Shown here piece after piece: positions 17,527-47,492 of a DNA stretch of 64,000 nt. How positions within the stretch are numbered: the stretch's first letter is position 1; each line of letters starts with the position of its first letter. This DNA comes from Corallococcus sp. AS-1-12 (GTDB taxonomy: Bacteria; Myxococcota; Myxococcia; Myxococcales; Myxococcaceae), in contig NZ_JAIQDD010000010.1 in assembly GCF_020036995.1 (NCBI RefSeq), forward strand, positions 97,433-161,432. The letters are read 5' to 3'. Made by a program: the position numbers and the translations under genes. The notes under the pieces are model-generated. The model was not told the origin of the DNA, did no database searches, and saw nothing but the letters and a program-made list of their open reading frames with translations.

Positions 17527-17541
17527 GGTGGGCGTGTCTCC

Positions 17542-18273
17542 TTACGAGGCGGGCTGCGGATCCGGGCGGGGAGCGGGGGGCGGGGTGCTCTCGCGCGGGG
17601 GCGGCGTGGTTTCCGGCAGCGGGCCGCCGGCGGAGCGCTCCTTGAGGACCTCCGCGAACTCGTCGCCCAACAGGCGCAGCTCCACCAGCACGCGGGACAG
17701 CCGGGCCTGGAAGTAGTTGTAGAAGACCATCGCCTGCACGGCGACGAGGATGCCCACGGCGGTGGCGACGAGCGCCTCGGAGATGCCCGTCATCACGGCC
17801 GCGGAGCCGCCGGTGCCGCCGGCCTCCACGTCCACGCCCAGGTCCTTGAAGGAGCGCATGATGCCGGCCACGGTGCCGAAGAGGCCCACGAAGGGCGTCG
17901 TCGAGCCGATGGTGGCGAGCAGCCACAGGTTGCGGCGCAGCTTCAAGCCCACCTGGGCGCGCTCGCGCTCCACGGCGGACTCGATGCCGTTGCCGCCGCT
18001 GGAGCGGGAGCGCTCCCAGCGATCGAACCCGGCGAGGAAGATGTCGGCCGCCACGGCGTCGGAGCGCTCGGCGGCGGTGCGGGCGGCGGCCACGTCCCCC
18101 CGGAGGAGGTGCTTCTGGACGATCTCCCCCAGGTTGCGGGAGCGCTCGCTCACGCCCCAGAGGGCGATGAGCCGCTCGATGGCCACGCCCAGGGCCACCA
18201 CGGAGGCGCCCAGGAGGAGGGCGAGGGTGACGCCGCCCAGGCGAAGGTAATGAAGTAGATCGTTCAGGCTCAT
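17542..18273 (-). CDS. exbB: MotA/TolQ/ExbB proton-channel protein
   Basis: ExbB/TolQ signature (TIGSTTPFVGLFGTVAGIMRSF) with 3 TM helices. Confidence 0.85.
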   Translation of the reverse strand: MSLNDLLHYLRLGGVTLALLLGASVVALGVAIERLIALWGVSERSRNLGEIVQKHLLRGDVAAARTAAERSDAVAADIFLAGFDRWERSRSSGGNGIESAVERERAQVGLKLRRNLWLLATIGSTTPFVGLFGTVAGIMRSFKDLGVDVEAGGTGGSAAVMTGISEALVATAVGILVAVQAMVFYNYFQARLSRVLVELRLLGDEFAEVLKERSAGGPLPETTPPPRESTPPPAPRPDPQPAS

Positions 18274-18315
18274 GATGGATGACCGGGCAGGCGGCCCTGG
18301 CTCACACTAGGACAT

Positions 18316-19146
18316 ATGAACCGCGCAGCCGCCGCAATCTTCCTGGCCCTCCTCTGTTCGGCCTGCCCCAAACGTCTCGAGTTCGGTCCGGAGGGCCGCA
18401 TCGAGGACGCCCAGACGCTCTACCAGCACGTGCGCGAGCGGCAGGCGAAGGTGGTGAACCTGGAGGGCGACGCCAAGCTCCACGTGGACTCCCCGCAGGG
18501 CAGCGGCACGCTCTCCACCTATCTCTCCATCACCCGCCCGGCCCTCATCCACCTGGAGACGTACGACTTCTTCAACCGCCCGGTGGCCTCGCTCGTCTCC
18601 GACGGTGAGCGCTTCGGCATCTACCAGGCGCGGGAGAACACGTACCTCCAGGGCCCCGCGAGCGCGGAGAACGTGTCCCGCTTCCTGCCCGTCGTCCTGC
18701 CGAGCGAGGAGCTGGTGGCGGTGATGCTGGGCCAGGTCCCCCTCCTGCCGCCGGAGTCCATGACCCTGGAGCTGGACGAGAAGGAGCGGGTCTACGTGCT
18801 CAAGCTCCAGCGGGGGCCGGCGACACAGACACTGCGCGTGGACCCCAAGCACCTGCGCGTGGTGAAGAGCGAGGTCCGGGGCGTGCCGGGCTACGACCTG
18901 GCGTTCGAGGACTTCCAGCAGCGGGGCGACCAGTTCTTCCCGGACAAGGTGCACCTCATCGCCGCCTCGGCGGACACGAAGCTGGACCTGAAGTACACGG
19001 ACATCCGCCTCAACGGCCGCCCGGACCTGACGCTCTATGAAATGGGCGCGCCCGAGGGGGCGAAGGTGGTGGACGTCGACGCGCGGGGCCAGGAGGTCCG
19101 CCCGGAAGGGGCGGTGTCGCAGCCGCCCCCTGCGCCGGGTTCCTGA
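18316..19146 (+). CDS. lipoprotein, LolB/DUF4292-like (uncertain)
   Basis: Signal peptide plus lipobox (FLALLCSAC). Function is not assignable from motifs. Confidence 0.55.
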   Translation: MNRAAAAIFLALLCSACPKRLEFGPEGRIEDAQTLYQHVRERQAKVVNLEGDAKLHVDSPQGSGTLSTYLSITRPALIHLETYDFFNRPVASLVSDGERFGIYQARENTYLQGPASAENVSRFLPVVLPSEELVAVMLGQVPLLPPESMTLELDEKERVYVLKLQRGPATQTLRVDPKHLRVVKSEVRGVPGYDLAFEDFQQRGDQFFPDKVHLIAASADTKLDLKYTDIRLNGRPDLTLYEMGAPEGAKVVDVDARGQEVRPEGAVSQPPPAPGS

Positions 19147-19205
19147 GCTTCCAGGCGTCGAAAGGCAGCGTCCCGGCGCAAACCGGGTACTATGGCGCGC
19201 ACGAC

Positions 19206-19955
19206 ATGGCACAGATCAAGCTTGGAGAACTGCTGATCAAGGCGAACGTCCTGCAGGAGAGCCAGCTCAAGGCGGCGCTCGCCGAGCAGGCCAAGTGGGG
19301 CGGGAAGCTGGGCGAGATCCTCGTCCGGATGAACCTCGTCTCCGAGGACATCCTCGTGCGCGCCCTGTCGAAACAGTTGGGCATGCCGGCGGTGAACCTG
19401 GACTCCGTGCAGATGGTGCCGCCGCACGTGAAGGCCAAGATTCCGGCGCAGACGGCGCGCGACTTCTCCGTGGTGCCGCTGCAACTGCGCGACGACGGCA
19501 AGACGCTGGTCGTCGCCATGTCGGATCCGCTCAACGTGCGCGTGCTGGACGAGCTGCGCGCCCTGTCCAAGTGCCGCATCGTGGCCAACGTGGCCGGGCG
19601 CACCTCCGTGGCGCGGGCGTTCGCGCGCCTCTACGAGGAGACGGCGGAGCTGGAGGACGCGGACACCAACTTCAAGGTGGTGGACGCCCAAGGCCGCACC
19701 GTCGTGAAGAACCTCAAGGACCTGGACCCGGCCGCCGCCGTCGCCATGTCCCCCAAGCCCGCCGCCGCTCCGCCGCCCCGTCAGGCCCCTCCGCCGGAGG
19801 CGCCGCGCGCGGCCTCGGGCAGCCCCGCGGAGCTGCTCAAGAGCGTGGAGGAGGTCCAGCGCAAGGAGGTCGCGGCGCTGAAGGCCATGGTGGAGCTGCT
19901 CATCGAGAAGGGCGTTTTCTCCCGCGAGGAATACCTCGCCAAGGTCAAGCGGTAG
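19206..19955 (+). CDS. MshEN / GspE-N-terminal domain protein (predicted c-di-GMP receptor)
   Basis: Tandem MshEN motifs (KLGELLIKANVLQESQLKAALAEQ...KLGEILVRMNLVSEDILVRALSKQ). No ATPase domain. Confidence 0.75.
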   Translation: MAQIKLGELLIKANVLQESQLKAALAEQAKWGGKLGEILVRMNLVSEDILVRALSKQLGMPAVNLDSVQMVPPHVKAKIPAQTARDFSVVPLQLRDDGKTLVVAMSDPLNVRVLDELRALSKCRIVANVAGRTSVARAFARLYEETAELEDADTNFKVVDAQGRTVVKNLKDLDPAAAVAMSPKPAAAPPPRQAPPPEAPRAASGSPAELLKSVEEVQRKEVAALKAMVELLIEKGVFSREEYLAKVKR

Positions 19956-19964
19956 CCCCCGGCC

Positions 19965-20968
19965 ATGCGCAAGAAGATTGGTGAACTCCTCGTCCAGGCC
20001 GGAGTGGTGACGGACGAGCAGGTGAAGCAGGCCCTCGCGTCCGGACGGCGCGGCCAGGGCCGCAAGCTGGGTGAGGTGCTGGTGTCCATGGGCCTGTGCA
20101 CGGGCCGGGACATCGCGCGGGCGCTGGCGGCGCAGCACGAGCTGCCGTTCGTGGAGATCCCCGAGTACATCCCCCATGCGGTGTCCTCGCTGGTGTCCAT
20201 GGACTTCCAGACCGAGCACCGGGTGCTCCTCTTCGCGGCGGAGCAGGACGGCCGCAGCGAGAAGATCCACGTCGCGGTGGAGGACCCGGGCAACCTGATG
20301 CTGGTGGACGAGCTGCGCTTCCAGCTTCGCAAGCCGCTGAAGGTGTTCGTCGCCGCGCCGGATGACCTGGAGCAGGCGTTGTCGCGCGGCCGGGGCGAGC
20401 CCCTGGACATCGTGGAGGCTGAACCGATGGACATGGACGAGGACGATTCGCCGGACATCCTGACGTCTCCGCCGCCCCCGCCCGCCGCCGCGCGCGCGCC
20501 CACGCCGCCGCGTCCGCCCGCGCCGGCGCTGGACTGGGACCTGCCGCCGCCGCCGCCCAACGAGTCGGGCGTGGACGGCGCGGAGGTGCTGGAGGACATC
20601 CTGGGCTCCACGCCCCGTCCCAAGGTCCCCAAGGCCCCGCGTCCGCCGCCCCCGCCCGCCGCGGCCCGTCCGCCGCCGCCTCCGCCCCCCGCGGAGCCGG
20701 AGGACCCGAGCAAGCCGCGCGTCCCGGTGGTGCTCTTCGGCGGCGCCGCGCAGGGCGTGAAGCCGTCCGTGGCGCTCACGCCCAAGCCGGACTTCTCCGA
20801 GGAGGACCTGGCGGTGCTGGACGACATCGACCGCATCTCGCGCGGCGAAGAGGCCAGCCTGGACACGGAGAAGGTGAAGCCCGCGCGCATGGTCGCGAGC
20901 CTCATCCGCCTGCTCATCCGCAAGGGGCTCATCCAGGAGGCGGAGTTCCTGGAGGAGCTGGCCCAGAA

Positions 20969-20972
<4 letters not shown>
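19965..20972 (+). CDS. MshEN / GspE-N-terminal domain protein with Pro-rich linker (paralog)
   Basis: [24 protein letters not shown]...[24 protein letters not shown]. Conserved C-terminal helix shared with the upstream paralog ([13 protein letters not shown] versus LIEKGVFSREEYL). Confidence 0.75.
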
Positions 20973-21996
<1,024 letters not shown>

Positions 21997-22000
<4 letters not shown>

Positions 22001-23052
22001 GCGAGCCGCTGGTCCAGGTGCGCGACCTGAAGGTGCACTTCCCGGTGAAGGGCGGCCTGCTGGGCCGCACGCGCGGCACGGTGCGCGCGGTGGACGGCGT
22101 GTCCTTCGACGTCGCCCGGGGCGAGACGCTGGGCCTGGTGGGGGAGAGCGGCTGCGGCAAGAGCACCCTGGGGCGCGCGGTGCTGCGCCTCATCGACCCG
22201 ACCTCCGGCTCCATCCGCGTGGCCGGGCGCGAGCTGACCGGCCTGTCGCAGCGCGAGCTGCGTCCGCTGCGCCGCCAGATGCAGCTCGTCTTCCAGGACC
22301 CGTACGCGTCGCTCAACCCGCGCATGACGGTGGGGGACATCCTCGCGGAGCCCTTCGCCATCCACGGCCTGGCGAAGGGCAGGGCGCGCGAGGACGAGGT
22401 GCTGGCGCTGCTCGACGCCATGGGGCTGCCCCGCGAGGCGCGCCAGCGCTACCCGCACGAGTTCTCCGGCGGCCAGCGTCAACGCATTGGCATTGCACGT
22501 GCCATCGCGTTGCGTCCAGACCTGGTGGTGGCGGATGAGCCCATCAGCGCGCTGGACGTCTCCATCCAGGCGCAGATCGTCAACCTGCTGGTGGACCTGC
22601 AGCGCGAGCGCGGCCTCACCTACGTCTTCATCGCGCACGACCTGAAGATCGTCGAGTACGTGTCCACGCGCGTGGCGGTGATGTACCTGGGGCGCATCGT
22701 GGAGGTGGCGCCGTCGCGGGCGCTGTACGCCGGGCCTCGCCACCCGTACACGCAGGCCCTGCTGTCCGCGGTGCCGGTGCCGGATCCGGAGCGCCCCGGC
22801 ACGCGCCTGCTGCTGCCGGGAGAGCCGCCTTCGCCCCTGTCGCCGCCGTCCGGTTGCGCGTTCCATCCGCGCTGCCCGCATGCGATGGAGCGCTGCCGCC
22901 GCGAGTCACCGCCGCTGTATCCCCTGGGCGGTGGCCACGCCGCGGCGTGCTTCCTGGCCGAAGGGGATTCGCGCGACGTACAGGACGGGCCCGCCGTTTC
23001 CGCGTCCGGAGGAGGTGCCGGTGTTCTGGCTCAGCCATCATCACGCGGATGA
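21997..23052 (+). CDS. ABC transporter ATP-binding protein, OppF/DppF-like
   Basis: Walker A (GESGCGKST), signature (FSGGQRQR), Walker B ([12 protein letters not shown]). ATGA overlap with the OppD-like gene. Confidence 0.85.
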
Positions 23053-23428
23053 GTACAACCGCACGTACGTGCTCGCGGGCGTGCGCGTGTGCGCGCGGTG
23101 CCTGGGCACGTACCCGGTGCTCGCGGGCGTGTTCCTCGCGTTGTTCGCGCTGAAGGCGCCGCTGCGGTGGGAGTGGGACGTGCCGGCGGTGCTGGCCCTC
23201 ACGCTGCCCGCGCTCGTGGACTGGGCGGTGGGACGCTTCCGGCCCGCTTCGGGTTCCAACGCGGTGCGCACGCTGACGGGCGTCCTGCTGGGAGTGGGGC
23301 TCGGCCGCTCGCTGTACGTGCATGTGCAGCGCCCGTTGCCGGCGGTGCTGCTGGCGCAGGCACTTCTGGTGACAGGGGTGGCGGTCCCTGTCATTCTCGC
23401 CACTTACCGGCGGCCACGGCCGGAATAG
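23021..23428 (+). CDS. DUF2085-like small membrane protein
   Basis: CARCLGTYP motif typical of DUF2085. 3-4 TM helices. GGAGGAGG RBS 5 nt upstream of GTG 23021. Confidence 0.5.
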
Positions 23429-23459
23429 ACCTTTCGCGCACGGCTGTCCGTTACAGGCC

Positions 23460-24140
23460 GTGGGCGGTGAAGGGGATGGCACCCGTGGCTTCATGGGCAC
23501 TGGGGGAAGTTTGGCACCCGAAACCTCAGACGAGCAGTTGATGCTCGCCTTCCAGGCGGGAAACGCGCGTGCGTTCGAAGCGTTGGTGCGCAAGCACCGC
23601 GCGCCGGTGTTCAACTTCATCCTGCGCTTCGTGGGCCACCGGGCGCGGGCGGAGGACGTGCTGCAGGAGACCTGGCTCAAGGTGGTCCGCAGCGCCCGGG
23701 AATACGAGCCCAAGGCCCGGTTCACGACCTGGCTGTACACCATCGCGAGGAACCTCTGCGTGGACAGCACGCGCAAAGAGAGCTACCGCCAGGCGACGTC
23801 CCTGGAAGCCCCCTCGGCGGGTGCCGACGGCGACGAGGGACGTCCGCTGGGCGAGGGGCTGCCGGATGCCGGGGCCAGCCCGGAGCGCGGCGCGCACAAC
23901 GCCCGCCTCCGGCCCCTGCTGGAGCGGGCCCTGTCGGCCCTGCCGGAGGAGCAACGCGAGGTGTTCGTGCTGCGCGAGTACAGCGGCATCCCGTTCAAGG
24001 AGATCGCCGAGGTGACGGGCGTGTCCGAGAACACGGTGAAGAGCCGCATGCGCTACGCGCTGGAGGGCCTGCGCCGCCGCCTGGGTGAGCTGGGCGTGGA
24101 CGGCGACCTGTCGGAGGATGGAAGGACGGTGGCGGGATGA
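23460..24140 (+). CDS. ECF (sigma-70 family group IV) sigma factor
   Basis: Region 2 (FEALVRKHRAPVFNFILRFVGHRARAEDVLQETWLKV) and region 4 (EQREVFVLREYSGIPFKEIAEVTGVSENTVKSRM). Confidence 0.85.
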   Translation: MGGEGDGTRGFMGTGGSLAPETSDEQLMLAFQAGNARAFEALVRKHRAPVFNFILRFVGHRARAEDVLQETWLKVVRSAREYEPKARFTTWLYTIARNLCVDSTRKESYRQATSLEAPSAGADGDEGRPLGEGLPDAGASPERGAHNARLRPLLERALSALPEEQREVFVLREYSGIPFKEIAEVTGVSENTVKSRMRYALEGLRRRLGELGVDGDLSEDGRTVAG

Positions 24141-25558
24141 ATGCCCAGAATGCCCACGCGCACGAGGACCGGCTCCTCGACTTCGCCTACGGCGAGCTCC
24201 CCGCGTCGGAGGCCCACGCGCTGGAGCAGCACGTCCAGGGCTGCGCGCGCTGCACGAAGGCGCTGGCGGACATCCGCGGCGTGCGCACCGCCATGGCGCA
24301 GTTGTCCTCGGAGCCCGCGCCGGACGCGGGCCTGGAGTCGCTGCTCGCGTACGCGCAGCAGTCCGCGCGCCGCGCCGCCGCCGGCCCCGAGCCGAAGCCC
24401 TCGCGCTGGCGCCGCTTCCTCTTGCCCGCGGTGGGCCTGGCCACGGTGGGCACCTTCGGCCTCCTGACGTTGACGGTGCGCGAGAACCTCGACCTGTCGC
24501 CGAACCTGTCACAGCGGGCCGCCCCCAGCGCGGCGATGGAGGCGGCGAAGGTCGCCCCCGTCGCCCCGGCCCCCGCGCCGTCGAGCGCGCCCCTCGAAGG
24601 GGACGCACCCGAGGGCGGCTCGGAGGCCCTGGCGGCCGCGCCGGGCGCGATGGAGCTCAACCGCAATCAGATGGAGACCAAGGCCCAGCGCAAGGGCACC
24701 GCCGCGGCCCGCCCGTCGGACTGGATGAACGCGGGCAGCGGGGGCGCGCTGCTGGAGCGCCGCGCGGACGCGGAGGCTCCGAAGAAGAAGGTGGCCAAGG
24801 CCGTCCGGGACGCGGACGGCGAGTTCGCCGCGCTCGAGCCGCCTCCGGCCGCGCTGGAGGCGCCGTCGAAGGAAGCGGAGGCCCATGACAGCTTCCTCGC
24901 GAAGGACGAGCCCGCGCGGGGGCGCGCCTCGGCCAAGGTCAGCGACAAGGCGCTGGCCACGAAGGGCGACTCCCTCCGGTTGGGTGAGGCGGCCTATGGC
25001 CGTGGGCTCGTCTCGGATGACGCAGAGGACACGTCCGCGAGCGCGCCTCCGCCGCCGCCTCCTCCCGTTGCCTCCGCGCCCGTGGTGCAGGCCGTGCCCA
25101 TGGCCCCCGCGAGCGTGGGCTCCATCGGCGGTGCGTCGCCGCCGTCCACGCGCGCTCCCGCCGCGCCCAAGGAGGAGTCCGCCCGGGCCGAGGCCGCGAA
25201 GCCCGCTCCCATGGAGAAGTCCGCGTCCCAGGAGGCGATGACGGCGCGCGACCTGTCCGCCCAGGCCCAGGCCGCCGCGAACCAGGGTGACCGCGCCCGG
25301 GAGGCACGGCTGCTGCGCGCCGCGCTCGCGGCCGGAGCCAGCGGCAGCGAGAGGCTGGCCCTGCTCTCACGGCTCTGCGAGTCCGAGTCCGCCCAGGGCC
25401 GGACCCGGGAGGCCGCCGCCGTCTGCGGGCAGATCATCAAGGAGGCCCCCGGCTCCAGCGCGGCGCAGCTCGCCCAGCGCCGCCTGCGTCAGGCCTCGCC
25501 CCCCACGGCGCCGGCGTCCGCGCCGGCCAAGGCCGCTCCTTCCCAGCCCGCGCAGTAG
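24137..25558 (+). CDS. anti-sigma factor (zf-HC2 N-terminus, single TM, long Ala/Pro-rich periplasmic domain)
   Basis: ATGA overlap with the sigma gene. HxxxC...CxxC zinc-finger anti-sigma motif (HALEQHVQGCARCTKAL). TM segment (FLLPAVGLATVGTFGLLTLTV). Confidence 0.75.
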   Translation: MNAQNAHAHEDRLLDFAYGELPASEAHALEQHVQGCARCTKALADIRGVRTAMAQLSSEPAPDAGLESLLAYAQQSARRAAAGPEPKPSRWRRFLLPAVGLATVGTFGLLTLTVRENLDLSPNLSQRAAPSAAMEAAKVAPVAPAPAPSSAPLEGDAPEGGSEALAAAPGAMELNRNQMETKAQRKGTAAARPSDWMNAGSGGALLERRADAEAPKKKVAKAVRDADGEFAALEPPPAALEAPSKEAEAHDSFLAKDEPARGRASAKVSDKALATKGDSLRLGEAAYGRGLVSDDAEDTSASAPPPPPPPVASAPVVQAVPMAPASVGSIGGASPPSTRAPAAPKEESARAEAAKPAPMEKSASQEAMTARDLSAQAQAAANQGDRAREARLLRAALAAGASGSERLALLSRLCESESAQGRTREAAAVCGQIIKEAPGSSAAQLAQRRLRQASPPTAPASAPAKAAPSQPAQ

Positions 25559-25576
25559 GGAAGGGCGGCAGTCCAC

Positions 25577-25879
25577 ATGACCGATGCGGCCGGGGCCCGG
25601 GTCCTGGATAATGGGGACATGACGTCGGACGTGCACGCTCCCCCCGTGAACAGCCCCCGGAAGTCGCCGCCGCGCTCCCCGCGCCGGGCCCGCCGTGGCC
25701 AGGCCATGGTGGAGTACTCGATGATCAACTGGGTGTTGATCGTCGGGCTCGTCATCGGCGCCACGGTGAAGATCCGCTGGACGGACGACCGGCAGACCAA
25801 CGTCATCGACCTGTTCCTCGAGGCGTATCAGATTTATTACGACTCGTTTTACTTCGTGCTGAACCTGCCGTTCCCCTGA
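25577..25879 (+). CDS. candidate Flp/Fap-family prepilin
   Basis: GXXXXEY Flp processing motif (G-QAMV-EY) followed by a hydrophobic stretch (SMINWVLIVGLVIGATV). The predicted mature part is short (~57 aa). It lies immediately upstream of cpaB-tadB-tadC. Confidence 0.5.
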   Translation: MTDAAGARVLDNGDMTSDVHAPPVNSPRKSPPRSPRRARRGQAMVEYSMINWVLIVGLVIGATVKIRWTDDRQTNVIDLFLEAYQIYYDSFYFVLNLPFP

Positions 25880-25991
25880 GGGACGCCAGGGCCGCGGATC
25901 AACCCGCTGCGTCGAGCCGTCCTCCCCCTGGGCGGGCAGGCTCCGTGAGCGCTGGAGGTCCCGGGATTCCGCTTTGTCACGAGAGGTGGTT

Positions 25992-26021
25992 TTGACACCC
26001 GATGTGGGGCATGGCTAACAT
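25992..26021 (+). promoter_or_regulatory. sigma-70-like promoter candidate upstream of cpaB
   Basis: TTGACA, an 18-nt spacer, then TAACAT, located ~90 nt upstream of the CpaB start. Confidence 0.3.
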
Positions 26022-26111
26022 CTTGCTCCGTTCGCGCCCTGGCATCGCCCCCTCGTCCAAAGCAGTCCTGCCGCCACGACGGCGCCCCACCGTTCTGGAG
26101 GACCTTGAACC

Positions 26112-26930
26112 ATGTTGAAGGGTAAGACCCCGCTCGTCGTCGCACTGGTGCTCGGTTTGCTCGCGGGCATCGTGGCCTACTCGGCCATCAAGAAGAAGGA
26201 ATCGGATGTGCGCCGCGGGTGGAACCTGGTGCCCGTGGTGGTGGCGGGCCAGGACATGCCCGAGGGTTCGGTCATCACGTACGAGATGATCTCCCAGCGC
26301 TCCGTGCCGGAGCAGTTCGTCACCTCGTCGGTGGTGAAGCCGGACTCCGCCAACTACATCGTGAACCAGAAGGTGCTGGTGGCGCTGCAGGCCGGCGACC
26401 CCATCCTCTGGAGCCAGTTCGAGACGACGAAGGCCGCCGAGCGCCTGTCCACGAAGGTGCAGAAGAAGGCGCGCGCCATCACCATCGAGGCGAAGCAGAC
26501 CACGTCCGTGGGCGGGTGGATCCGCCCGAACGATCACGTGGACATCATCGGCACGTTCCGCGATCCGCAGACGGACGAGAGCGTCGCGGTGACGCTGCTG
26601 CAGAACATCATCGTGGTCGCCACGGGCAAGATCACCGGCACCACGAACATCAACCTCATCCCGGAGAACCAGCGCGAGTACTCCAACGTCTCGCTGATGG
26701 TGCTGCCGGAAGAGGCGGAGATCCTGGTGCTGGCGGCGGAGCTGGGGCAGTTGACCCTGTCCCTGCGCAACGAGGACGACGTGGACCTCATCGAGGAGCG
26801 TGGCCGCGCGACCATCAGCACGCTGCTCTCCGGTGAGCGCACCCGCGTGCTGGAGCAGAAGCGCCGGGAGATCATCCAGATCATCAAGGGCAGTGGCGGC
26901 GGCGAGAAGGCCTCGGCCGGAGCTCCGTAG
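26112..26930 (+). CDS. cpaB: Flp pilus assembly protein CpaB/RcpC homolog
   Basis: N-terminal TM (LVVALVLGLLAGIVAY) plus an SAF/CpaB periplasmic domain. Confidence 0.85.
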   Translation: MLKGKTPLVVALVLGLLAGIVAYSAIKKKESDVRRGWNLVPVVVAGQDMPEGSVITYEMISQRSVPEQFVTSSVVKPDSANYIVNQKVLVALQAGDPILWSQFETTKAAERLSTKVQKKARAITIEAKQTTSVGGWIRPNDHVDIIGTFRDPQTDESVAVTLLQNIIVVATGKITGTTNINLIPENQREYSNVSLMVLPEEAEILVLAAELGQLTLSLRNEDDVDLIEERGRATISTLLSGERTRVLEQKRREIIQIIKGSGGGEKASAGAP

Positions 26931-26942
26931 TCGTCGCGCGCG

Positions 26943-26971
26943 GGGCCGCTTCGCCAACGCTGAAGCGGCCC
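26943..26971 (+). other. intercistronic stem-loop between cpaB and tadB
   Basis: Perfect 10-bp stem GGGCCGCTTC/GAAGCGGCCC with a 9-nt loop and no U-tract. Confidence 0.4.
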
Positions 26972-27008
26972 TGCCGACCCCTCCCTCATCCCCCGGGGAT
27001 TCGCGCCC

Positions 27009-27854
27009 ATGCTCGCAGGTATCGTCCTCCTTCTCGTCACCGGCTCGGTGTTCTTCTTCAGCCTGGTGATCTTCAGCGTCCTGTCGAAGGCGTATGAGCA
27101 GTACCAGGAGCGCTACGTCGCCAAGTCGATGAACGACTTGAGCGACATGTTCCTCTTCATCGACGCGCGGCAGATGTTGATCCTCAACATCGCCTGCATG
27201 TGCCTTCTGGGCATCCTCAGCTACATCATCTTCAACCCCATCCTGGCGGTGCTCGCGACCATCTTCGGCTTCTTCCTGCCGATGCTGCTCGTGAAGCACT
27301 ACCGCAAGCGCCGCATCAAGAAGTTCAACGTGCAGTTGGTGGACGCGCTGCAGGCCATGGCCAACGCGTTCAAGGCGGGCCTCACGTTCCCGCAGGCCAT
27401 CGAGCACGTGGCGCGCGAGGCGCTGCCGCCCCTGTCCCAGGAGTTCGGCCTCTTCGTGAAGGAAGTGAAGCTGGGCGTGCCGCTGGAGGAGGCGCTCATC
27501 AACATGGGCCGCCGCGTGGGCAGCGACGACCTGGAGCTGGTGGTGGTGTCCACCAACATCGCGCGCCAGTTGGGCGGCAACATGGCGGAGATGTTCGAGA
27601 CCATCTCCACGGTGATCCGCGAGCGCTTCCGTCTGGAAGGCAAGATCGACGCGCTGACGTCCCAGGGCAAGCTTCAAGGCTGGATCGTGGCGGCCATGCC
27701 GGCGGTGCTGGGCATGGTGCTCAACTACATGCGTCCGGACCTGATGGAGCCGATGATGAACCACATCTTCGGCTACATCCTGGTGACCCTGATCGCCATC
27801 ATGGAGATCATGGGCATCCTCATCATCCGGCGCATCGTCAACATCGACATCTGA
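27009..27854 (+). CDS. tadB: TadB-like platform protein (T2SS-F/GspF family)
   Basis: T2SSF-type domain with 3 TM segments (GLTFPQAIEHVAREALPPLSQEFG...). Confidence 0.8.
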   Translation: MLAGIVLLLVTGSVFFFSLVIFSVLSKAYEQYQERYVAKSMNDLSDMFLFIDARQMLILNIACMCLLGILSYIIFNPILAVLATIFGFFLPMLLVKHYRKRRIKKFNVQLVDALQAMANAFKAGLTFPQAIEHVAREALPPLSQEFGLFVKEVKLGVPLEEALINMGRRVGSDDLELVVVSTNIARQLGGNMAEMFETISTVIRERFRLEGKIDALTSQGKLQGWIVAAMPAVLGMVLNYMRPDLMEPMMNHIFGYILVTLIAIMEIMGILIIRRIVNIDI

Positions 27855-27867
27855 AGCGAGGCGCACC

Positions 27868-28758
27868 GTGCAGGAAGTCCTGACATTTCTGCTGATGGGC
27901 GGCTCGGCACTGCTGACCGCGGGCGCGGTGGCGTTCCTGGGCATCGGCCTGTACACCAACCTCCTGGAGCGCTTCCTCACGGAAGTCCGCGACGAGTCCG
28001 CGGGCGGCATGAAGGGCGCGGGCTCCGTCGCCATCCGCAAGCTGGGCGCGATGAACCGGCGCTTCATGTGGCCGGGCTACGAGTCCAAGACGCGCCGCAA
28101 GCTGATCAAGGCGGGCGAGCCGTCCCAGTACAAGCCCGAGGACATCATGGCGCTGCAGGAGGTGAGCGCCTTCCTGGGCCTGCTGGTGGGCCTGTTCGTC
28201 GCCAACGGCATCGGGGCGAACCTGGCGTGGTCGCTGCTGGTGATGCTGCTGGGCCTGTTCTATCCGCTCATCTGGTTGAACGACCAGGTGAAGCGCCGTC
28301 ACCTGGCCATCAGCCGCGCGCTTCCGTACAACCTGGACCTGCTGACGCTGTCGGTGGAAGCGGGCATGGACTTCACGGGCGCGCTGGCGAAGGTGGTGGA
28401 GAAGGGCCGCCAGGGGCCGCTGCGCGAGGAGCTGCAGTTGGTGCTCAAGCAGCTCAAGATGGGCAAGACGCGTGAAGAGGCGCTCAAGGGCATGATCGTG
28501 CGCGTGGACCTGCCGTCGCTGACGACGTTCGTCACGGCGCTGATCCAGGCGGACAAGATGGGCACGAGCCTGGGCAAGGTGCTGCGCATCCAGTCCACGC
28601 AGATGCGCATCGACCGCACGCAGCGCGCGGAGAAGCTGGCGGGTGAGGCACCGGTGAAGATGCTCTTCCCGCTCATCGCGTGCATCTTCCCGACGGTGTT
28701 CATGGTGCTCTTCGGGCCCATCGTGTTCCAGTTCATGTTCGGCAACGTCGGGGGCTAG
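27868..28758 (+). CDS. tadC: TadC-like platform protein (T2SS-F/GspF family)
   Basis: T2SSF-type domain (LPYNLDLLTLSVEAGMDFTGALAKVVEKG). Confidence 0.8.
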   Translation: MQEVLTFLLMGGSALLTAGAVAFLGIGLYTNLLERFLTEVRDESAGGMKGAGSVAIRKLGAMNRRFMWPGYESKTRRKLIKAGEPSQYKPEDIMALQEVSAFLGLLVGLFVANGIGANLAWSLLVMLLGLFYPLIWLNDQVKRRHLAISRALPYNLDLLTLSVEAGMDFTGALAKVVEKGRQGPLREELQLVLKQLKMGKTREEALKGMIVRVDLPSLTTFVTALIQADKMGTSLGKVLRIQSTQMRIDRTQRAEKLAGEAPVKMLFPLIACIFPTVFMVLFGPIVFQFMFGNVGG

Positions 28759-28831
28759 TCCTCTGCCCATCCTGCTCACCATCACCCAGGGGCTCCAGGT
28801 TGGACGGGAGCTCGCCTTCGAGCAGGCCGAA

Positions 28832-31663
28832 GTGAAGATCGGCCGGACCTCGGAGAACGACCTGGTCCTGCATGACCACGGTGTCTCCCGGCGTCATGCC
28901 CGCATCACGGCGAGGGATGGGCGTTACTTCGCCGAGGACGTTGGCAGCGCGAACGGCACGCAGTTGAACGGCCAGCCGCTGGGCGGCCAGAAGCAACTGC
29001 GCGACGGCGACCGCATCACCGTGGGGCCGGTGGAGTTCACCTTCGTGTGGGTGGCGCCGGAGGATGACGACGACGTCACCCGGCCCATCCGGCGGATGCT
29101 CGCGCCGCCGCACGCGAAGGTGTCGCCGCAGGGCGTGGAGCAGGCCTCGCTCGCGGAGATCGAAGCGGCGCCCACGAGCTACCAGCCGTCGATGCCGGCC
29201 ATGGCCCGGCCCGCGTCCCCGCCGCGCCCGGGAATGGCCGTGCCCGCCGCGAAGGGTGGGGCGATGCCAATGCCGGCCGCCACGCCGAAGCGGCCCTCCG
29301 CTCCGGATCTACCGGCGGTCAGTGCCTCCGCGCCGGGCCGGGCTGCACCGGGAACTCCCGTGCTGGGAACGCCCACGCCGGGGGCGGCGGCTTCGCCCAA
29401 GCCTGGTGTGCAGGGAGCCTCTGTTCCGGCGACTCCGCCCCGGCCTCCCTCGGGTCCGCCTGCGCTGGGCGCCTCTGCGTCCTCTGCTTCGGGCAAGGTT
29501 CCCGCCGCGCCTTCCGTGGTGGGGAGCCTGGGGCAGGGCGCGACCGCGCCGGCCAGGACTCCCGCGGGCCCTCCGGTGTTGGGTCCCGCGGCTCCCAACG
29601 AGGGTTCCCCGGCCAGGGCTCCTGCTGCTCCCCCGGTGCTGTCGGCCGGGAACAAGGCCTCGGGAGCTTCCGCCGCCGTCCGTGCCTCCGGGCCGGGACC
29701 GTCCTTGGCGGCCCGGGGCGCAGCGGCTTCGTCACCCGGCCTGCCGTTGATGTCTCCGCCGGGGCTGATGGTTCCGCCTCCTCCCGCACGGCCTCTCGCC
29801 GTGCCTCCTCCCGTGGAGCTGGCCCCCGTGGCGCCGGACGAGCCCGAGGAGCGCACGCTGATGGCGATCTCCACGGTGGACTCGCCCGTGCCCGCCGCCA
29901 CGCCGCCTCCCGTGCTGTCCCTCCCGGACATGGACGAGCCCGAGGAGCGCACGCTGATGGCGATCTCCACGGTGGACTCGCGCGTGCCCGCCGCCGCGCC
30001 GCCTCCCGTGCTGCCTCTCCCGGAGCTGGACGAGCCCAACGAGAGCACGCTGATGGCGATTCCCACGGCGGACCTGGCCGTGCCCGCCGCCACGCCGCCC
30101 CCGGTGCTCTCCTTCCCGGAGCTGGACGAGCCCGAGGAGCGCACGCTGATGGCGATTCCGGCGACCCCGGAAGCGCCACCGGTTCCCGTCGCGCCGCCGC
30201 CGCAGGAGGCCCCGCCCGCGCTGCCCCCGCCGGCGATGGAGGAGCCCGAGGAGCGGACCGTCCTCGACCTCCGGCCCATCACGCCGGTCAAGCCGCTCGT
30301 GGCCCCTCCGGTGCGCATCGTGAGCGCGCCCGCCGCCGCGATCGACTCCAGCGAGCCCTCGACCTTCGTCGGCCAGGACGATGACCTCTCCGCGGCCCCC
30401 GAGGAGACCCGGGCCTCCGGGACCTTCTCGGGCCAGGTCTCGCCCGGACCTGCCGCACCGGCCGCGGCGCCTCCGCCGGTCTGGAGCCCTCCCGTCCCGC
30501 CGCCTTCCGAGGAGCCGGTGACGTTCGTCGGCCACGACCGCGCCCCGCCTGCCCCGGCCCTGGACCCCGGGCTGCTGACGGGCGAAATCCCACTGCTGGC
30601 CCATGTGCCCGCTCCGGACGCGGAGGGTGAAGCCACCCTGCCCGTGCCGGCCAACCTGGATGAGTCCGCCACCCAGCCCGCGCCAAGGGGCCCGGTGACG
30701 GTCGTCGCGAAGGTCGAGCCCTCGTCCGCCGCCGACAAGGCCCGCCAGCGGCGCCAGTTGGGCAAGACGCTCAAGGGCCGGTTCCTCCTCTTCTGGCAGC
30801 GCCAGTCGCTGCCCAGGCGCATCGGCTTCGCGTCGCTGGCGGGCGTGGCCGTGCTGGGCGTGCTGACGCTGCTCGTGGCGCTCGCGGCCCCCTCGGCCAT
30901 CCGGCTCCCGGGCCGCGAACCCTTCACGCTGGGCATGGAGCCGGTGCCGGACTCCTTCGGCCTGGGCGAAGGGGTGCGCTGGGTCCACGCCGACGACAAG
31001 CTCTTCGACTTCCGCTTCGTGTCCCCCACGCGCGCCGTGGCGGTGCTGCACTACCAGGCCAGCAACATCGCCCGGGACGAGGTCAACCTGTCCCTCAACG
31101 GCGTGTCCCTGGGCTGGGTGCCCCCGGATACCGCCCAGACGGCCGAGCGTGAGCTGGAGCAGGTCCTCCCGCCCAGCCTCCTGCGGCGCAACGCCAACAA
31201 CCAGCTCCTCTTCGACAACGCCCTCAACCCGCCCGGCCGCGACCCCTGGCGCATCTGGAACCTGCGGCTGGAGATCATCCCGGTGCCGGAGCTGCCGCCG
31301 GATCAGCTCATCACCTCCGCCCGGGAGGCCGCCAAGGCAGGGGCCCGCTTCTACGAGCTCAAGGACGTGGGCGCGGAGAACCTGTTCAAGGCGTGGCGGG
31401 AGTACCGCGCCGCGTGGATCACCCTGGAAGCGCTGGACGACAAGCCGGAGCTCTACGAGGACGTCCGGGAGCGGATCGCCCAGATTTCAACGGAGCTGGA
31501 CCACCGCTGCAGCCAACTGATGATGCAGTTCCAGCGGGCGGTTCAGTTCCGCAGCCGACGGGATGCGGTCGCCACCCTGGAAGACGTACGGAGACGCTTC
31601 CCTACGGCCGAGCATCGCTGCCACAATCTCGCGCTGGAAAAAGCCTATGAGCACGAGCTTTAG
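28832..31663 (+). CDS. FHA-domain protein, large proline-rich, with internal 32-aa tandem repeats
   Basis: FHA core (IGRTSENDLVLHDHGVSRRHARI...ANGTQLNGQPL). The first canonical start (GTG 28832) would truncate the FHA beta1 strand, which is encoded in-frame upstream (PILLTITQGLQVGRELAFEQAE). The true start is likely non-canonical at ~28763-28769. Confidence 0.8.
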   Translation: MKIGRTSENDLVLHDHGVSRRHARITARDGRYFAEDVGSANGTQLNGQPLGGQKQLRDGDRITVGPVEFTFVWVAPEDDDDVTRPIRRMLAPPHAKVSPQGVEQASLAEIEAAPTSYQPSMPAMARPASPPRPGMAVPAAKGGAMPMPAATPKRPSAPDLPAVSASAPGRAAPGTPVLGTPTPGAAASPKPGVQGASVPATPPRPPSGPPALGASASSASGKVPAAPSVVGSLGQGATAPARTPAGPPVLGPAAPNEGSPARAPAAPPVLSAGNKASGASAAVRASGPGPSLAARGAAASSPGLPLMSPPGLMVPPPPARPLAVPPPVELAPVAPDEPEERTLMAISTVDSPVPAATPPPVLSLPDMDEPEERTLMAISTVDSRVPAAAPPPVLPLPELDEPNESTLMAIPTADLAVPAATPPPVLSFPELDEPEERTLMAIPATPEAPPVPVAPPPQEAPPALPPPAMEEPEERTVLDLRPITPVKPLVAPPVRIVSAPAAAIDSSEPSTFVGQDDDLSAAPEETRASGTFSGQVSPGPAAPAAAPPPVWSPPVPPPSEEPVTFVGHDRAPPAPALDPGLLTGEIPLLAHVPAPDAEGEATLPVPANLDESATQPAPRGPVTVVAKVEPSSAADKARQRRQLGKTLKGRFLLFWQRQSLPRRIGFASLAGVAVLGVLTLLVALAAPSAIRLPGREPFTLGMEPVPDSFGLGEGVRWVHADDKLFDFRFVSPTRAVAVLHYQASNIARDEVNLSLNGVSLGWVPPDTAQTAERELEQVLPPSLLRRNANNQLLFDNALNPPGRDPWRIWNLRLEIIPVPELPPDQLITSAREAAKAGARFYELKDVGAENLFKAWREYRAAWITLEALDDKPELYEDVRERIAQISTELDHRCSQLMMQFQRAVQFRSRRDAVATLEDVRRRFPTAEHRCHNLALEKAYEHEL
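29837..30220 (+). repeat. 4 (+1 partial) tandem 96-bp coding repeats inside the FHA gene
   Basis: Unit gacgagcccgaggagcgcacgctgatggcgatctccacggtggactcg... encodes EPEERTLMAISTVDSPVPAATPPPVLSLPDMD. Units start at 29837, 29933, 30029 and 30125. Confidence 0.8.
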
Positions 31664-31690
31664 GGCTCGTGCCCCCCTCAGCAGGACGCG

Positions 31691-33439
31691 GTGACCTCCA
31701 TGTCGAACGCACCACCCCCCGCCCGCCGACGGCCTACATCTGGCACGCCCTCCTCCGGGACCGGTTCGCGCGCGCCGGTCCGCCGGTCGTCCGCCGGTGC
31801 CGCCGCGGCCCGCCCCGCGAAGCTCGTCGTCATCGCCGGCCCCATGGAGGGTGAGGAGTTCGCGCTCTCCGAGCTCGAGTACACGGTCGGCCGCTCCACC
31901 GACAACCCCATCTGCATCCAGGACACGTCCGTCTCCCGCAAGCACGTGACGCTGCGCAAGGAGTCCGCCGGCTGGATGGTCAGTGACATGGGCTCCGGCA
32001 ACGGCACCATCGTCAACGGCGAGCCCATCTCCGAGGAGACGCTCCTCGCCAACGGCGACGTCATCACGCTGGGCGACTCGGAGCTGCGCTACGAGGACAC
32101 CGCCAACAGCACCGCGAAGGTGCAGGCCCCCACCGGCCCCCGGCCCCGTCCATCCTCGGCGGCGGGCCGCGGTTCCACGGCCGTGCCCCCGCGCCCCGCC
32201 CGCGAGGGCCGCGCGCGCCCGCAGACGTCGCGGGCCGCCGCCGCCGCGGAGCTCTCGCCGGAGGTGCAGCGCAAGCGCATGCGGATGAAGCTCGCGGGCG
32301 CCGCCGTGCTGGTGGTGCTCTTCGCGGGCCTGGGCGTCGCGCGCTCGCGCATGCGGCAACAGGCGGAGGAGCAGGGCCGCATCGAGGCGGAGCAGCGCAG
32401 CTACCGCGAGCAGTTGGGCGGCCTCTTCCAGGAGGCGAAGAACCTGGTGCGCGAGGGCCAGTGGCAGCAGGCCAAGGCGAAGCTGGAGGAGCTCCACGCG
32501 CAGGCGCCGGACTACCCCGGCGTGGCGGACTACCTGAAGGCCGCGGAGCGGGAGATCCCCAACCAGAACCACCTGAGCACGGCCCAGGCGGCGCTGGACA
32601 AGGGCCAGTTGGCCAGCGCGAAGGCGTCCATCGAGAAGGTGACCAGCGACACCCAGCTCTACGAGCAGTTGAAGACGGCGCGCAAGAACCTGACGGACGC
32701 CGCCGACACGCGCACGAAGGAGGCCAAGCGGCTGCTGGACACCCGCCAGTTGGAGAACGTGCAGCAGGCCAAGGCCATCACCGACGACGTGCTCGCGACC
32801 TTCCCCGAGCACCGCGACGGCAAGCTGGTCAACGACGACGCCGTGCGCGTCATCGCGGACCTGACGCGTCCGGACCCCGTGCGCGTGGCCGCGGCGCCCA
32901 AGCCGTGGGAGCCCGCCGTGGACCGCTTCCGCGACGGTGACATCACCGGCGCGGTGGCCATCCTCAACGCGTGCGCGGCCAAGACGTCCCAGTGCAAGCA
33001 GTTGATGGCGCAGGTGACGGAGTTCGGCAACCTCTACAAGAAGCTGGAGGACCTGGACGCCAAGGGCCTCACCCGCCTGCTCGCGCTGGACAAGGACATC
33101 ACCGACGGGCGCGCCAGCAAGATGGCGCGCAACGCGGGCACCCGCGCGGGCAACATCTATTACAAGAGCGCCGCGGGCGCGAAGGCCGCCGGCCAGTGGT
33201 CGCGCGCCATGGAGTTCGCCCGCCGCGCGCTCCAGGCGGACCCCAGCCACGCGGGCGCCGCCAACATCGTCAACGACCTCAAGGGCAAGGCGAAGGACCT
33301 GTACATGCAGGCCTACTCCATCAAGGACTCCAGCCCGGAGGACGCGCTGCCCAAGTTCCGCGACGTCGTCGCGATGACGCCGCCCGACGACGAGCTGCAC
33401 GGCAAGGCCCAGGGCTGGGTCGAGAAGCTGTCGCGATGA
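31691..33439 (+). CDS. FHA-domain protein with TM segment and C-terminal TPR-like helical domain
   Basis: FHA core (YTVGRSTDNPICIQDTSVSRKHVTL...SGNGTIVNGEPI). TM segment (LAGAAVLVVLFAGLGVA). The stop overlaps the xseA start (ATGA). Confidence 0.85.
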   Translation: MTSMSNAPPPARRRPTSGTPSSGTGSRAPVRRSSAGAAAARPAKLVVIAGPMEGEEFALSELEYTVGRSTDNPICIQDTSVSRKHVTLRKESAGWMVSDMGSGNGTIVNGEPISEETLLANGDVITLGDSELRYEDTANSTAKVQAPTGPRPRPSSAAGRGSTAVPPRPAREGRARPQTSRAAAAAELSPEVQRKRMRMKLAGAAVLVVLFAGLGVARSRMRQQAEEQGRIEAEQRSYREQLGGLFQEAKNLVREGQWQQAKAKLEELHAQAPDYPGVADYLKAAEREIPNQNHLSTAQAALDKGQLASAKASIEKVTSDTQLYEQLKTARKNLTDAADTRTKEAKRLLDTRQLENVQQAKAITDDVLATFPEHRDGKLVNDDAVRVIADLTRPDPVRVAAAPKPWEPAVDRFRDGDITGAVAILNACAAKTSQCKQLMAQVTEFGNLYKKLEDLDAKGLTRLLALDKDITDGRASKMARNAGTRAGNIYYKSAAGAKAAGQWSRAMEFARRALQADPSHAGAANIVNDLKGKAKDLYMQAYSIKDSSPEDALPKFRDVVAMTPPDDELHGKAQGWVEKLSR

Positions 33440-35151: not shown

Positions 35152-35192
35152 CGGGCCACCCTCTACATTCCGCGCCCCGCTCGGGGAGGTGG

Positions 35193-35531: not shown

Positions 35532-35558
35532 GCATCAGGGGAAGGGCGGAGGCCGGGC

Positions 35559-46708: not shown

Positions 46709-46761
46709 CATAATCAGGTCGCCCCGCTCCCGACGGAGCAGGCGCTGGCGAGGATCACCTC

Positions 46762-47489: not shown

Positions 47490-47492
47490 TCC

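Follow-up and report, generated by a model that had tools for sequence, protein, structure and literature searches.

The Tad-like pilus built by the Kil system of Myxococcus xanthus is polymerized at sites of prey contact, and contact-dependent killing requires it; cluster II of the system (MXAN_4648-4661) contributes the platform proteins KilG and KilH, the CpaB-like protein KilB and the adapter pilin KilK (PMC8460266, PMC12075869). The function of KilK, along with the roles of KilP and the Tips, has been described by Herrou et al. (Nat Commun 2025, PMC12075869). The M. xanthus genes run in the order OppD, OppF, DUF2085, sigma factor, anti-sigma factor (MXAN_4661), TadE-like KilM4, the Tad protein KilN4, TadE-like KilL4, two unknowns, the 75-aa KilK (MXAN_4655), two further unknowns, KilB, KilG, KilH, an FHA protein (MXAN_4649), an FHA-TPR protein (MXAN_4648) and xseA (PMC8460266). 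Here we analyze a stretch of 64,000 nt from Corallococcus sp. AS-1-12 (contig NZ_JAIQDD010000010.1, positions 97,433 to 161,432), referred to as a whole as the window. Judged by sequence comparison with the M. xanthus locus, the block at 25619-33439 is in all likelihood the ortholog of Kil cluster II, that is, the inner-membrane half of a Tad-like contact-killing pilus, and the block upstream of it would mostly be a separate module.

The Kil core genes

Since the window has a G+C content of ~72%, genes were called by codon-position G+C and then checked with Pfam, and the Pfam scans covered nearly all remaining coding-like open reading frames (ORFs) in the 64 kb. The resulting gene order at 17071-35948 is ExbD and ExbB on the minus strand, followed on the plus strand by DUF4292, two MshEN genes, OppD-like, OppF-like, DUF2085, extracytoplasmic function (ECF) sigma factor, anti-sigma factor, an 86-aa ORF, CpaB, two T2SSF genes, an FHA/YscD-like gene, FHA plus TPR, xseA, xseB, a response regulator, ispA, dxs and a tlyA-like methyltransferase. 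All domains named in a preliminary description of this DNA, made from the sequence alone, were reproduced by Pfam. As the M. xanthus reference we used locus L087 (L numbers are our handles for compared loci), which was reached via the ortholog of the small ORF and compared with the window by tblastn. Gene identities were taken from Supplementary file 1 of Seef et al. 2021 (PMC8460266), with which the L087 gene series agrees gene for gene; MXAN numbers above 4661 are inferred from gene order. The comparison yields one-to-one orthologs in the same order, which bears out the match to the split Kil system MXAN_4648-4661 that the preliminary description had proposed, with an eye to genomes other than M. 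xanthus; this genome is indeed Corallococcus. The core features are as follows.

25619-25879, plus strand: KilK ortholog, a Flp-type adapter (minor) pilin encoded as an 86-aa prepilin; 78% identical to MXAN_4655, the 75-aa protein in the KilK position of L087
26112-26930, plus strand: KilB (CpaB/RcpC) with an N-terminal membrane anchor; Pfam RcpC and SAF, 90% identical to MXAN_4652
27009-27854, plus strand: KilG (TadB/CpaG), inner-membrane platform protein; Pfam T2SSF, 95% identical to MXAN_4651
27868-28758, plus strand: KilH (TadC/CpaH), inner-membrane platform protein; Pfam T2SSF, 83% identical to MXAN_4650
28763(28832)-31663, plus strand: MXAN_4649 ortholog, composed of a YscD/PrgH-like cytoplasmic FHA domain, a long linker rich in Pro, one transmembrane segment (TM) and a C-terminal domain of ~260 aa; Pfam FHA and Yop-YscD_cpl
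31691-33439, plus strand: MXAN_4648 ortholog with a cytoplasmic FHA domain, one TM and a TPR-like domain (predicted to be periplasmic); Pfam FHA, Yop-YscD_cpl and weak TPR, 62% identical to MXAN_4648

The identities of KilB, KilG and KilH hold over the full length of the proteins, and the three genes are adjacent and ordered as in M. xanthus. The KilG genes of the two species differ by 52 synonymous and 13 non-synonymous codons, which is purifying selection. The KilK ORF gave no Pfam match; it encodes a Flp-type cleavage motif, RG/QAMVEY(S), followed by a hydrophobic helix, and both RG/QAMVEYS and a C-terminal YYDSxYFVLNLPFP are invariant in 10/10 KilK orthologs. Within the genus, the window KilB protein is identical in six Corallococcus assemblies, and locus L002 (GCA_042231085.1) encodes proteins 96-100% identical to those of the window throughout. 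The source of a further locus, L004, is GCF_004104415.1 (GCA/GCF), which is C. coralloides (Herrou et al. 2025, PMC12075869).

The plus-strand block of Flp prepilin, CpaB, TadB and TadC announced in the preliminary description is thus found at 25619-28758, by Pfam and by the RG/QAMVEY motif. With canonical Tad/Cpa loci (Aggregatibacter tad, Caulobacter cpa) the window shares a Flp pilin bearing a G/XXXXEY site, the CpaB/RcpC protein, and T2SSF proteins of the TadB and TadC types. Unlike in these loci, TadA/CpaF, RcpA/CpaC, TadZ/CpaE, TadV/CpaA and TadE/F/G are missing from the locus as well as from the scanned ORFs of the window, and two FHA membrane proteins and a sigma/anti-sigma pair are added. 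Correspondingly, no Pfam match to a T2SSE/CpaF ATPase, a secretin, a CpaE/TadZ ParA-like ATPase or an A24 peptidase was found in the scanned ORFs of the 64 kb. Both the reported absence of CpaF/TadA, CpaC, TadZ/CpaE and prepilin peptidase and the claim that the composition departs from a canonical Tad locus, which lacks nothing of this ATPase, secretin, TadZ and peptidase set, therefore held up. The Kil-like clusters of other predators, Bdellovibrio bacteriovorus (Bd0110-0119) and Bradymonas sediminis (DN745_00680-00700), encode homologous CpaB, TadB and TadC, and in Bdellovibrio regulatory FHA, TPR and PilZ genes lie near the tad genes. However, locus tags run consecutively there through CpaB, secretin, ATPase, TadB and, for Bradymonas, TadC, whereas the set in the window is split.

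M. xanthus cluster II remains the closest relative (PMC8460266, PMC12075869): anti-sigma factor, KilK, KilB, KilG, KilH, FHA, FHA-TPR and xseA have the same order and orientation at identities of 42-95%, promoter-like elements are conserved in both loci, and the M. xanthus genes are likewise split from the ATPase/secretin/peptidase cluster. By orthology with M. xanthus, KilG and KilH would provide the platform for polymerization of the major pilin KilP by the FHA-fused ATPase KilF, KilB would link the platform to the secretin KilC, and KilK would join the minor-pilin tip complex to the fiber. The two FHA membrane proteins could be scaffolds that, depending on phospho-threonine, recruit their cytoplasmic FHA partners (KilF, KilD) where prey is contacted; a Ser/Thr phosphorylation signal triggered by prey contact was proposed by Seef et al. 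(PMC8460266). KilF, KilC, KilA and KilD would be encoded in cluster I, outside the window, and KilP and the other tips elsewhere.

Three promoter-like elements accompany these genes.

23396-23452, plus strand: conserved promoter-like element before the sigma gene, CTCGCCACTTACC ... TAGACC-N17-CGTT, of the general form TAGACC-N16/17-CGTT; kept in Corallococcus, Myxococcus, Hyalangium, Archangium and a Myxococcaceae metagenome-assembled genome (MAG)
25571-25621, plus strand: conserved element GTCCAnnTGACCGATGC ... GATAATGG-N4-5-ATG directly before kilK; kept in L001 and L004 (both Corallococcus loci examined), L007, L009 and the M. xanthus locus L087
25992-26021, plus strand: sigma-70-type promoter-like site of kilB, TTGACA-N18-TAACAT; the only sigma-70-like site within 17-36 kb (19 kb)

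The TTGACA-N18-TAACAT site is kept 5' of kilB in 7/7 Cystobacterineae loci compared (Corallococcus, Myxococcus, Hyalangium, Archangium, Myxococcaceae MAG), and kilB, kilG and kilH together with the FHA genes probably have their own housekeeping (sigma-70)-type promoter. The MXAN_4648-like stop overlaps the xseA start by 4 bp, and because the genes are tightly packed or overlapping, transcription of the kilB unit may continue into xseA. The kilK element fixes the kilK start at 25619; the ATG stands 6-7 nt after GATAAT, and the spacing suggests a leaderless transcript. In M. xanthus the same GTCCAnnTGACCGATGC...GATAATGG element precedes kilM4, and in Hyalangium and the Myxococcaceae MAG it precedes the kilM4 counterparts. 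The element before the sigma gene is intergenic in Archangium and is therefore conserved as DNA, not as coding sequence. Its core, AGACC-N15-18-CGTT, has a single match in the window, at the sigma gene, with 1.3 expected by chance. We rejected a promoter motif common to the sigma gene, kilK and kilB, as this core recurs at neither kilK nor kilB, where the elements look different; there is thus no evidence that the sigma factor drives the kil genes.

Archangium offers a variation on this arrangement. In L008 an inverted copy of the TGACCGATGC element lies near kilB (~18811, minus strand). The best KilK-like match in Archangium (51-60% identity) is on the opposite strand, ~2 kb past the anti-sigma gene (L008 12765-12977, minus; L078 12722-12952, minus). 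An inversion of the tip4/kilK segment is suggested for this genus.

The upstream block and the Kil machine

The MshEN pair, OppD/OppF, DUF2085, the sigma/anti-sigma pair and ExbBD, which the preliminary description placed with and around the Tad genes, are all present by Pfam, and all of them lie upstream of those genes, with none interspersed.

17071-17526, minus strand: ExbD/TolR-like protein with one TM; Pfam ExbD 1.2e-28, divergent neighbor
17542-18273, minus strand: ExbB/TolQ/MotA-family proton-channel protein; Pfam MotA_ExbB 4e-29, divergent neighbor
18316-19146, plus strand: DUF4292 protein, LolB-like, with a signal-peptide-like, Cys-containing N-terminus (judged by eye); Pfam DUF4292 6e-15
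19206-19955, plus strand: stand-alone MshEN/GSPII protein 1, predicted cyclic di-GMP (c-di-GMP) receptor; Pfam MshEN, NCBIfam c-di-GMP_motif (NF053729) 64.8 bits, cut-off 38
19965-20972, plus strand: stand-alone MshEN protein 2 with a Pro-rich linker and a C-terminal helix, predicted c-di-GMP receptor; Pfam MshEN, NCBIfam c-di-GMP_motif 58.5 bits, cut-off 38
20969-22000, plus strand: OppD/DppD-like ABC ATPase; Pfam ABC_tran and oligo_HPY, NCBIfam OppD/DppD scores under cut-offs
21997-23052, plus strand: OppF/DppF-like ABC ATPase; Pfam ABC_tran and oligo_HPY, NCBIfam NF008453 413 bits, cut-off 408; 80% identical to the M. xanthus neighbor
23021-23428, plus strand: DUF2085 membrane protein with two hydrophobic segments; Pfam DUF2085 1.4e-9, 83% identical to M. 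xanthus
23493-24140, plus strand: ECF sigma factor, alternative GTG start at 23460; Pfam Sigma70_r2/r4_2, NCBIfam NF009166 268 bits, cut-off 206; 87% identical to M. xanthus
24137-25558, plus strand: ZAS-type anti-sigma factor, MXAN_4661 ortholog, with an N-terminal zinc finger, one TM and ~360 aa beyond it; Pfam zf-HC2, 42% identical to MXAN_4661

The sigma factor consists of regions 2 and 4 only, and its gene overlaps that of the zf-HC2 anti-sigma factor by 4 bp; the latter has its TM at residues 94-112, and the part beyond would be periplasmic. Single hydrophobic segments put each FHA and zinc-finger domain of the locus on one side of the membrane. The two MshEN proteins carry, like MshE, PilB and PilF, an N-terminal 53-residue tandem motif and a complete GSPII fold region; the motif, two 24-residue motifs with a 5-residue spacer, was defined by Wang et al. 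2016 (PMC5013675). In the first protein, residues 5-144, the whole GSPII domain, align to the N-domains of PilF, PilB and MshE in the PDB, and the two 24-residue motifs with their 5-residue spacer deviate solely by Gly10 to Asn, in both motifs. The second protein has Gln24 replaced by Gly in motif 1 and a 6-residue spacer, as read from the translation; its second motif was not matched by a loosened pattern, and the MshEN motifs that matched deviate at one position each. Unlike MshE, PilB and PilF, both proteins stand alone, with no ATPase domain and just a Pro-rich linker and a short C-terminal helix.

For the DUF4292 protein, which is a probable lipoprotein by its sequence, a PDB sequence search gave no relative. 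Its match to the NCBIfam model LolB1_Flavo (LolB1, Bacteroidota) reaches 47.1 bits against a cut-off of 50 and spans model positions 3-236 of 244; such a near-threshold, full-length match points to a general envelope role. The scanned ORFs of the window hold no match to the partners of an Opp/Dpp importer, BPD_transp_1 (permease) or SBP_bac_5 (binding protein). ExbB scores far under the NCBIfam tolQ and exbB cut-offs, no TonB gene was found in the window, and the genes next to ExbBD are an acyl-CoA dehydrogenase and the DUF4292 gene, not TonB or TolA/Pal.

How far these genes travel with kil was followed by synteny. The series ExbD/ExbB, DUF4292, MshEN twice, OppD, OppF, DUF2085, sigma and anti-sigma is kept beside the Kil genes in Archangium, Hyalangium and the Myxococcaceae MAG, and the upstream neighbors that fall within the span of the M. 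xanthus locus (OppD/OppF, DUF2085, sigma) match the window. In a distant uncultured Myxococcota clade (L010, L017, L089-L091), in which KilB is ~45% identical, the order is DUF4292-like lipoprotein, MshEN, long MshEN, HD_5 (HD-GYP-like), sigma, anti-sigma, KilB, KilG, KilH, FHA, FHA. The DUF4292 homolog found there in the same position is 28-30% identical, and a PilZ or PP2C-cNMP gene lies just upstream of the block. OppDF, DUF2085 and ExbBD, the last adjacent in Cystobacterineae, are absent from this clade. Microcompartment shell genes (BMC, EutN_CcmL, CsoS1D_N) stand immediately 5' of the PP2C-cNMP gene in two of its loci (L090:1-1916, L091:1-1369). We rejected a window ortholog of the distant-clade HD_5 protein; the only match, to the REC-HD_5 gene at 11434-12654 (minus), is weak and generic, with 33% over 147 aa. 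This HD-GYP-like response regulator lies within 15 kb of the MshEN pair, and a second c-di-GMP-related gene, encoding a GAF-HisKA-HATPase-REC hybrid kinase with a short terminal GGDEF fragment, is found at 41373-43967 (plus).

Taken together, the DUF4292 lipoprotein, the two MshEN proteins, the OppDF-like ATPases, DUF2085 and the sigma factor of the upstream block most likely make up a separate module, adjacent since ancient times, and not a set of structural Kil parts. The main alternative, which we consider unlikely on balance, makes the block a dedicated regulatory and assembly module of Kil: the MshEN pair would sense c-di-GMP and act in trans on the ATPase KilF or on KilG/H, the anti-sigma/sigma pair would sense the envelope or prey contact and tune kil and tip expression, and the LolB-like lipoprotein would serve the outer-membrane part. 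It draws on the order lipoprotein, MshEN, MshEN, variable gene, sigma, anti-sigma, KilB, KilG, KilH, FHA, FHA that Cystobacterineae and the distant clade have in common, and on the contents of the variable slot in that clade, where the HD_5 protein and the adjoining PilZ or PP2C-cNMP gene make a second link to c-di-GMP and to FHA/phospho-signaling. Both MshEN proteins exceed the NCBIfam c-di-GMP-motif cut-off, and MshEN usually forms the N-domain of ATPases in type IV pilus and type II secretion systems (PMC5013675); since the N-domain of KilF is FHA and not MshEN, trans-acting MshEN proteins are a reasonable idea. Moreover, the anti-sigma factor MXAN_4661 was already counted within cluster II by Seef et al. 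(PMC8460266), PilZ, FHA and TPR genes occur near the Bdellovibrio tad genes as well, and literature of 2026 still lists the spatial determinants of Kil assembly as unknown.

Against this, the same ancient block holds the housekeeping genes xseA and xseB, a response regulator and tlyA/ftsJ, so that adjacency by itself does not separate function from inherited gene order. A conserved sigma-70-type promoter-like site belongs to kilB itself, and no motif is common to the sigma gene and kilK or kilB. The sigma/anti-sigma family (~50% identity) is found across Myxococcota in at least ~70 loci that lack any Kil gene within 10 kb, including those of Sorangium (sigma, ZAS, PilZ) and Kofleriaceae (among fpg and rnhB); most sigma homologs among the matches listed lack nearby Kil genes, and few of those matches are Myxococcaceae, which leaves the synteny sample uneven. 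With 22 MshEN genes in M. xanthus (PMC5013675), a neighboring pair is unremarkable, and DUF4292 resembles LolB1, a general lipoprotein insertase. One MAG locus ('bacterium isolate 2_bin.46', L053:3929-10615) carries TPR, DUF4292, MshEN, OppD, OppF and sigma, and the 10 kb that follow lack kilB/G/H; a stand-alone existence of the upstream block as a module is thus possible. A full-text search with the locus tags MXAN_4661-4670, which are partly inferred, found no paper text discussing the flanking genes, the supplements of other papers lying outside this search.

Within the separate-module assignment, the genes can still be ranked. As regulators, the sigma/anti-sigma and MshEN pairs are credible candidates, involvement of the DUF4292 lipoprotein in Kil is possible, and ExbBD, OppDF and DUF2085 are most likely unrelated bystanders; as a whole, accessory-gene involvement in Kil is plausible but unproven. 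The suggestion of the preliminary description that the accessory genes are candidate new components is only weakly backed; they also flank the cluster in M. xanthus, as far as its locus extends, and in other Cystobacterineae, and in distant relatives no more than a part of the block stays linked. One may go further and picture the MshEN pair, the anti-sigma/ECF sigma pair and the LolB-like lipoprotein as a control layer coupling c-di-GMP and envelope signals to where and when the pilus assembles, with the corollary that Tip4-deleted Corallococcus would kill only via T3SS*-dependent tips; we regard this extension as speculative and doubtful. In practical terms, the neighbors worth deleting are narrowed to the MshEN pair, sigma/anti-sigma and DUF4292, which stay beside kilBGH across a deep Myxococcota split, while OppDF, DUF2085 and ExbBD do not; this short ranked list has some use for the question of how Kil assembly is targeted to prey contacts.

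Absence of Tip4 from the cluster, the FHA proteins and cluster I

The absence of Tip4 from the cluster is the most biologically interesting difference from M. xanthus. Cluster II of M. xanthus has kilL4, kilM4 and kilN4 as well as MXAN_4653, 4654, 4656 and 4657, and none of the seven has a tblastn match within the 64 kb. In the window kilK is the sole gene between the anti-sigma gene and kilB, starting 60 nt after the anti-sigma stop and separated from kilB by 232 bp. Deletion boundaries were set against L092, a locus of 'Corallococcus sp.' H22C18031201 with the full M. xanthus-like set: relative to it the window has two deletions, ~5.9 kb between anti-sigma and kilK and ~1.5 kb from kilK to the promoter region of kilB. 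Seven Corallococcus loci, L001-L006 and L093, have this reduced form. The lineage would thus have lost seven cluster genes, Tip4 (kilL4/M4/N4) and MXAN_4653/54/56/57, with kilK now immediately after what appears to be the old promoter-like element of tip4. Among the M. xanthus tips, Tip4 alone kills independently of T3SS*, and Tips 1-3 are redundant with it (PMC12075869).

A second change affects the FHA proteins. The preliminary description had two FHA proteins flanking the Tad block; two are present, and both lie downstream of tadC. The TM is at residues 689-707 in the MXAN_4649-like protein, whose C-terminal domain would be periplasmic, and at residues 199-217 in the MXAN_4648-like protein. 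By tblastn, the MXAN_4649-like protein is 77% identical to MXAN_4649 in its FHA part and 54% in its C-terminal part, on either side of an insert of ~480 aa in the window protein. It measures 943-966 aa in the window against 484 aa in M. xanthus; among the loci compared, it has 943-1021 aa in the reduced Corallococcus loci that call one ORF and 484-494 aa in M. xanthus and the Tip4-keeping Corallococcus strain. The extra length is Pro-rich cytoplasmic linker, roughly doubled, and includes one repeat tract.

29836-30156, plus strand: 96-bp (32-aa) tandem repeat, 3.3 copies, in the linker of the FHA protein; Tandem Repeats Finder score 509, 88% matches

Linker expansion and Tip4 loss co-occur among the Corallococcus loci. 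With the inner-ring proteins YscD/PrgH of the type III secretion system (T3SS), both window FHA proteins share the Yop-YscD_cpl match and one predicted TM after the FHA domain, and a PrgH-like HHpred match for MXAN_4649 was reported by Seef et al. (PMC8460266). Unlike in YscD/PrgH, the parts after the TM have no detectable similarity to solved structures (a PDB sequence search with the MXAN_4649-like protein's C-terminal domain gave no match), and other T3SS genes are absent here.

A CTG at 28763 takes the place of the GTG start of M. xanthus MXAN_4649, and no canonical start occurs before the GTG at 28832. The 23 codons after the CTG are kept via synonymous changes, and translation therefore very probably starts at or near CTG 28763, as far as codon conservation can tell. 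The CTG is found at this position in all seven reduced-type Corallococcus loci. Public annotations differ on the start of the gene or split it, with two ORFs called in L004.

These features could be taken for decay, that is, loss of Tip4, of the four other genes and of the canonical start codon in the MXAN_4649-like gene having inactivated the predation pilus in this lineage; the seven deleted genes, the CTG in place of GTG and the disagreement of gene callers would all fit. We consider this reading very improbable and have rejected it: the remaining genes are intact and under purifying selection, the promoter-like elements are kept, as are the amino acids before the first canonical start, and the reduced architecture, CTG included, is unchanged across the seven loci from different assemblies. 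Nor need the loss of Tip4 disable the pilus, given the redundancy of Tips 1-3 with Tip4 in M. xanthus; the C. coralloides entries that we draw on from Supplementary Data 1 of Herrou et al. 2025 include Tip1 genes and a Tip2 kilM homolog.

The same entries bear on the missing Tad parts (Herrou et al. 2025, PMC12075869). In C. coralloides GCF_004104415.1 they place KilB/G/H at gene indices 4611/4610/4609 and KilD/F/C/A at 4689-4692, and in a second Corallococcus genome index 4647 faces 4732-4735 for cluster I. Within the part of the table used here, the distance between clusters I and II amounts to ~80-88 genes in the two Corallococcus genomes, ~430 in Stigmatella, ~1500 in M. xanthus and ~2300-2400 in Archangium. 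By these published values for related strains, the Kil system is still split in Corallococcus, its halves ~80 genes apart in contrast to ~1500 in M. xanthus; Corallococcus may be near an unsplit ancestral arrangement, or the clusters may have been brought together again. Going by how L004 is oriented, cluster I would be expected past the window's left end. The prediction that secretin and ATPase sit in a second cluster is thus supported by way of C. coralloides, where, in the tabulated entries, the cpaF, cpaC and peptidase counterparts are ~80 genes off instead of following in the same operon just outside the window.

An ordinary adhesive Tad/Flp locus with tadZ, tadA, rcpA and tadV just outside the window in the same operon, a reading that leans on Flp, CpaB, TadB and TadC being the standard Tad core, is scarcely credible and was rejected: the flanks are unrelated (sigma/anti-sigma upstream; the FHA genes and then xseA, xseB, ispA and dxs downstream), the other Tad parts are absent from every Pfam-scanned ORF of the 64 kb, KilB/G/H are 83-95% identical to their experimentally defined counterparts, and the listed C. 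coralloides positions put ATPase, secretin and peptidase with KilD ~80 genes away.

Several points nevertheless weigh against equating the 25619-33439 block with Kil cluster II in full. With Tip4 lost, the machine may behave differently here; its function in Corallococcus would follow from orthology with M. xanthus, and both the proximity of cluster I and the Tip repertoire are taken from entries of a published table for a related strain. The MXAN_4649-like gene is without a canonical start upstream of its FHA domain. Finally, the upstream block keeps its adjacency to kilBGH in a clade with KilB only ~45% identical, which challenges its assignment as separate.

On the orthology reading, the locus is the counterpart of a published, experimentally dissected system and leaves the view of Tad/Kil machines unchanged; its value is comparative. 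KilB/G/H of C. coralloides are among the entries of Herrou et al. 2025, so that the system and its Corallococcus orthologs are already known. What the window adds is modest but of use: a cluster architecture that lacks Tip4 and retains kilK, an FHA protein with a longer linker and a non-canonical start, two clusters close to each other, a conserved promoter-like site of kilB, and a ranking of accessory genes by deep synteny. A natural Tip4-less cluster II with kilK retained fits the published role of KilK as an adapter for several tips, and it provides a natural test of whether the T3SS*-independent killing by Tip4 is dispensable.

Other genes of the window

The remaining neighbors listed here are not related to Tad or Kil.

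2978-7090, minus strand: SNF2-family helicase, 1370 aa
7263-8222, minus strand: MoxR-type AAA_3 ATPase
57367-64000, plus strand: ABC-2/Wzt polysaccharide exporter, then several family-2 glycosyltransferases at the right end

Three bactofilin genes stand in a row on the plus strand (46714-47103, 47103-47489 and 47490-48212), directly followed by a gene for a ParB_N-domain protein (48199-49644, plus). We take this group (46714-49644) to resemble the bacNOP-padC chromosome-segregation scaffold locus of M. xanthus, a likeness that would presumably fit general synteny with the MXAN_46xx region.

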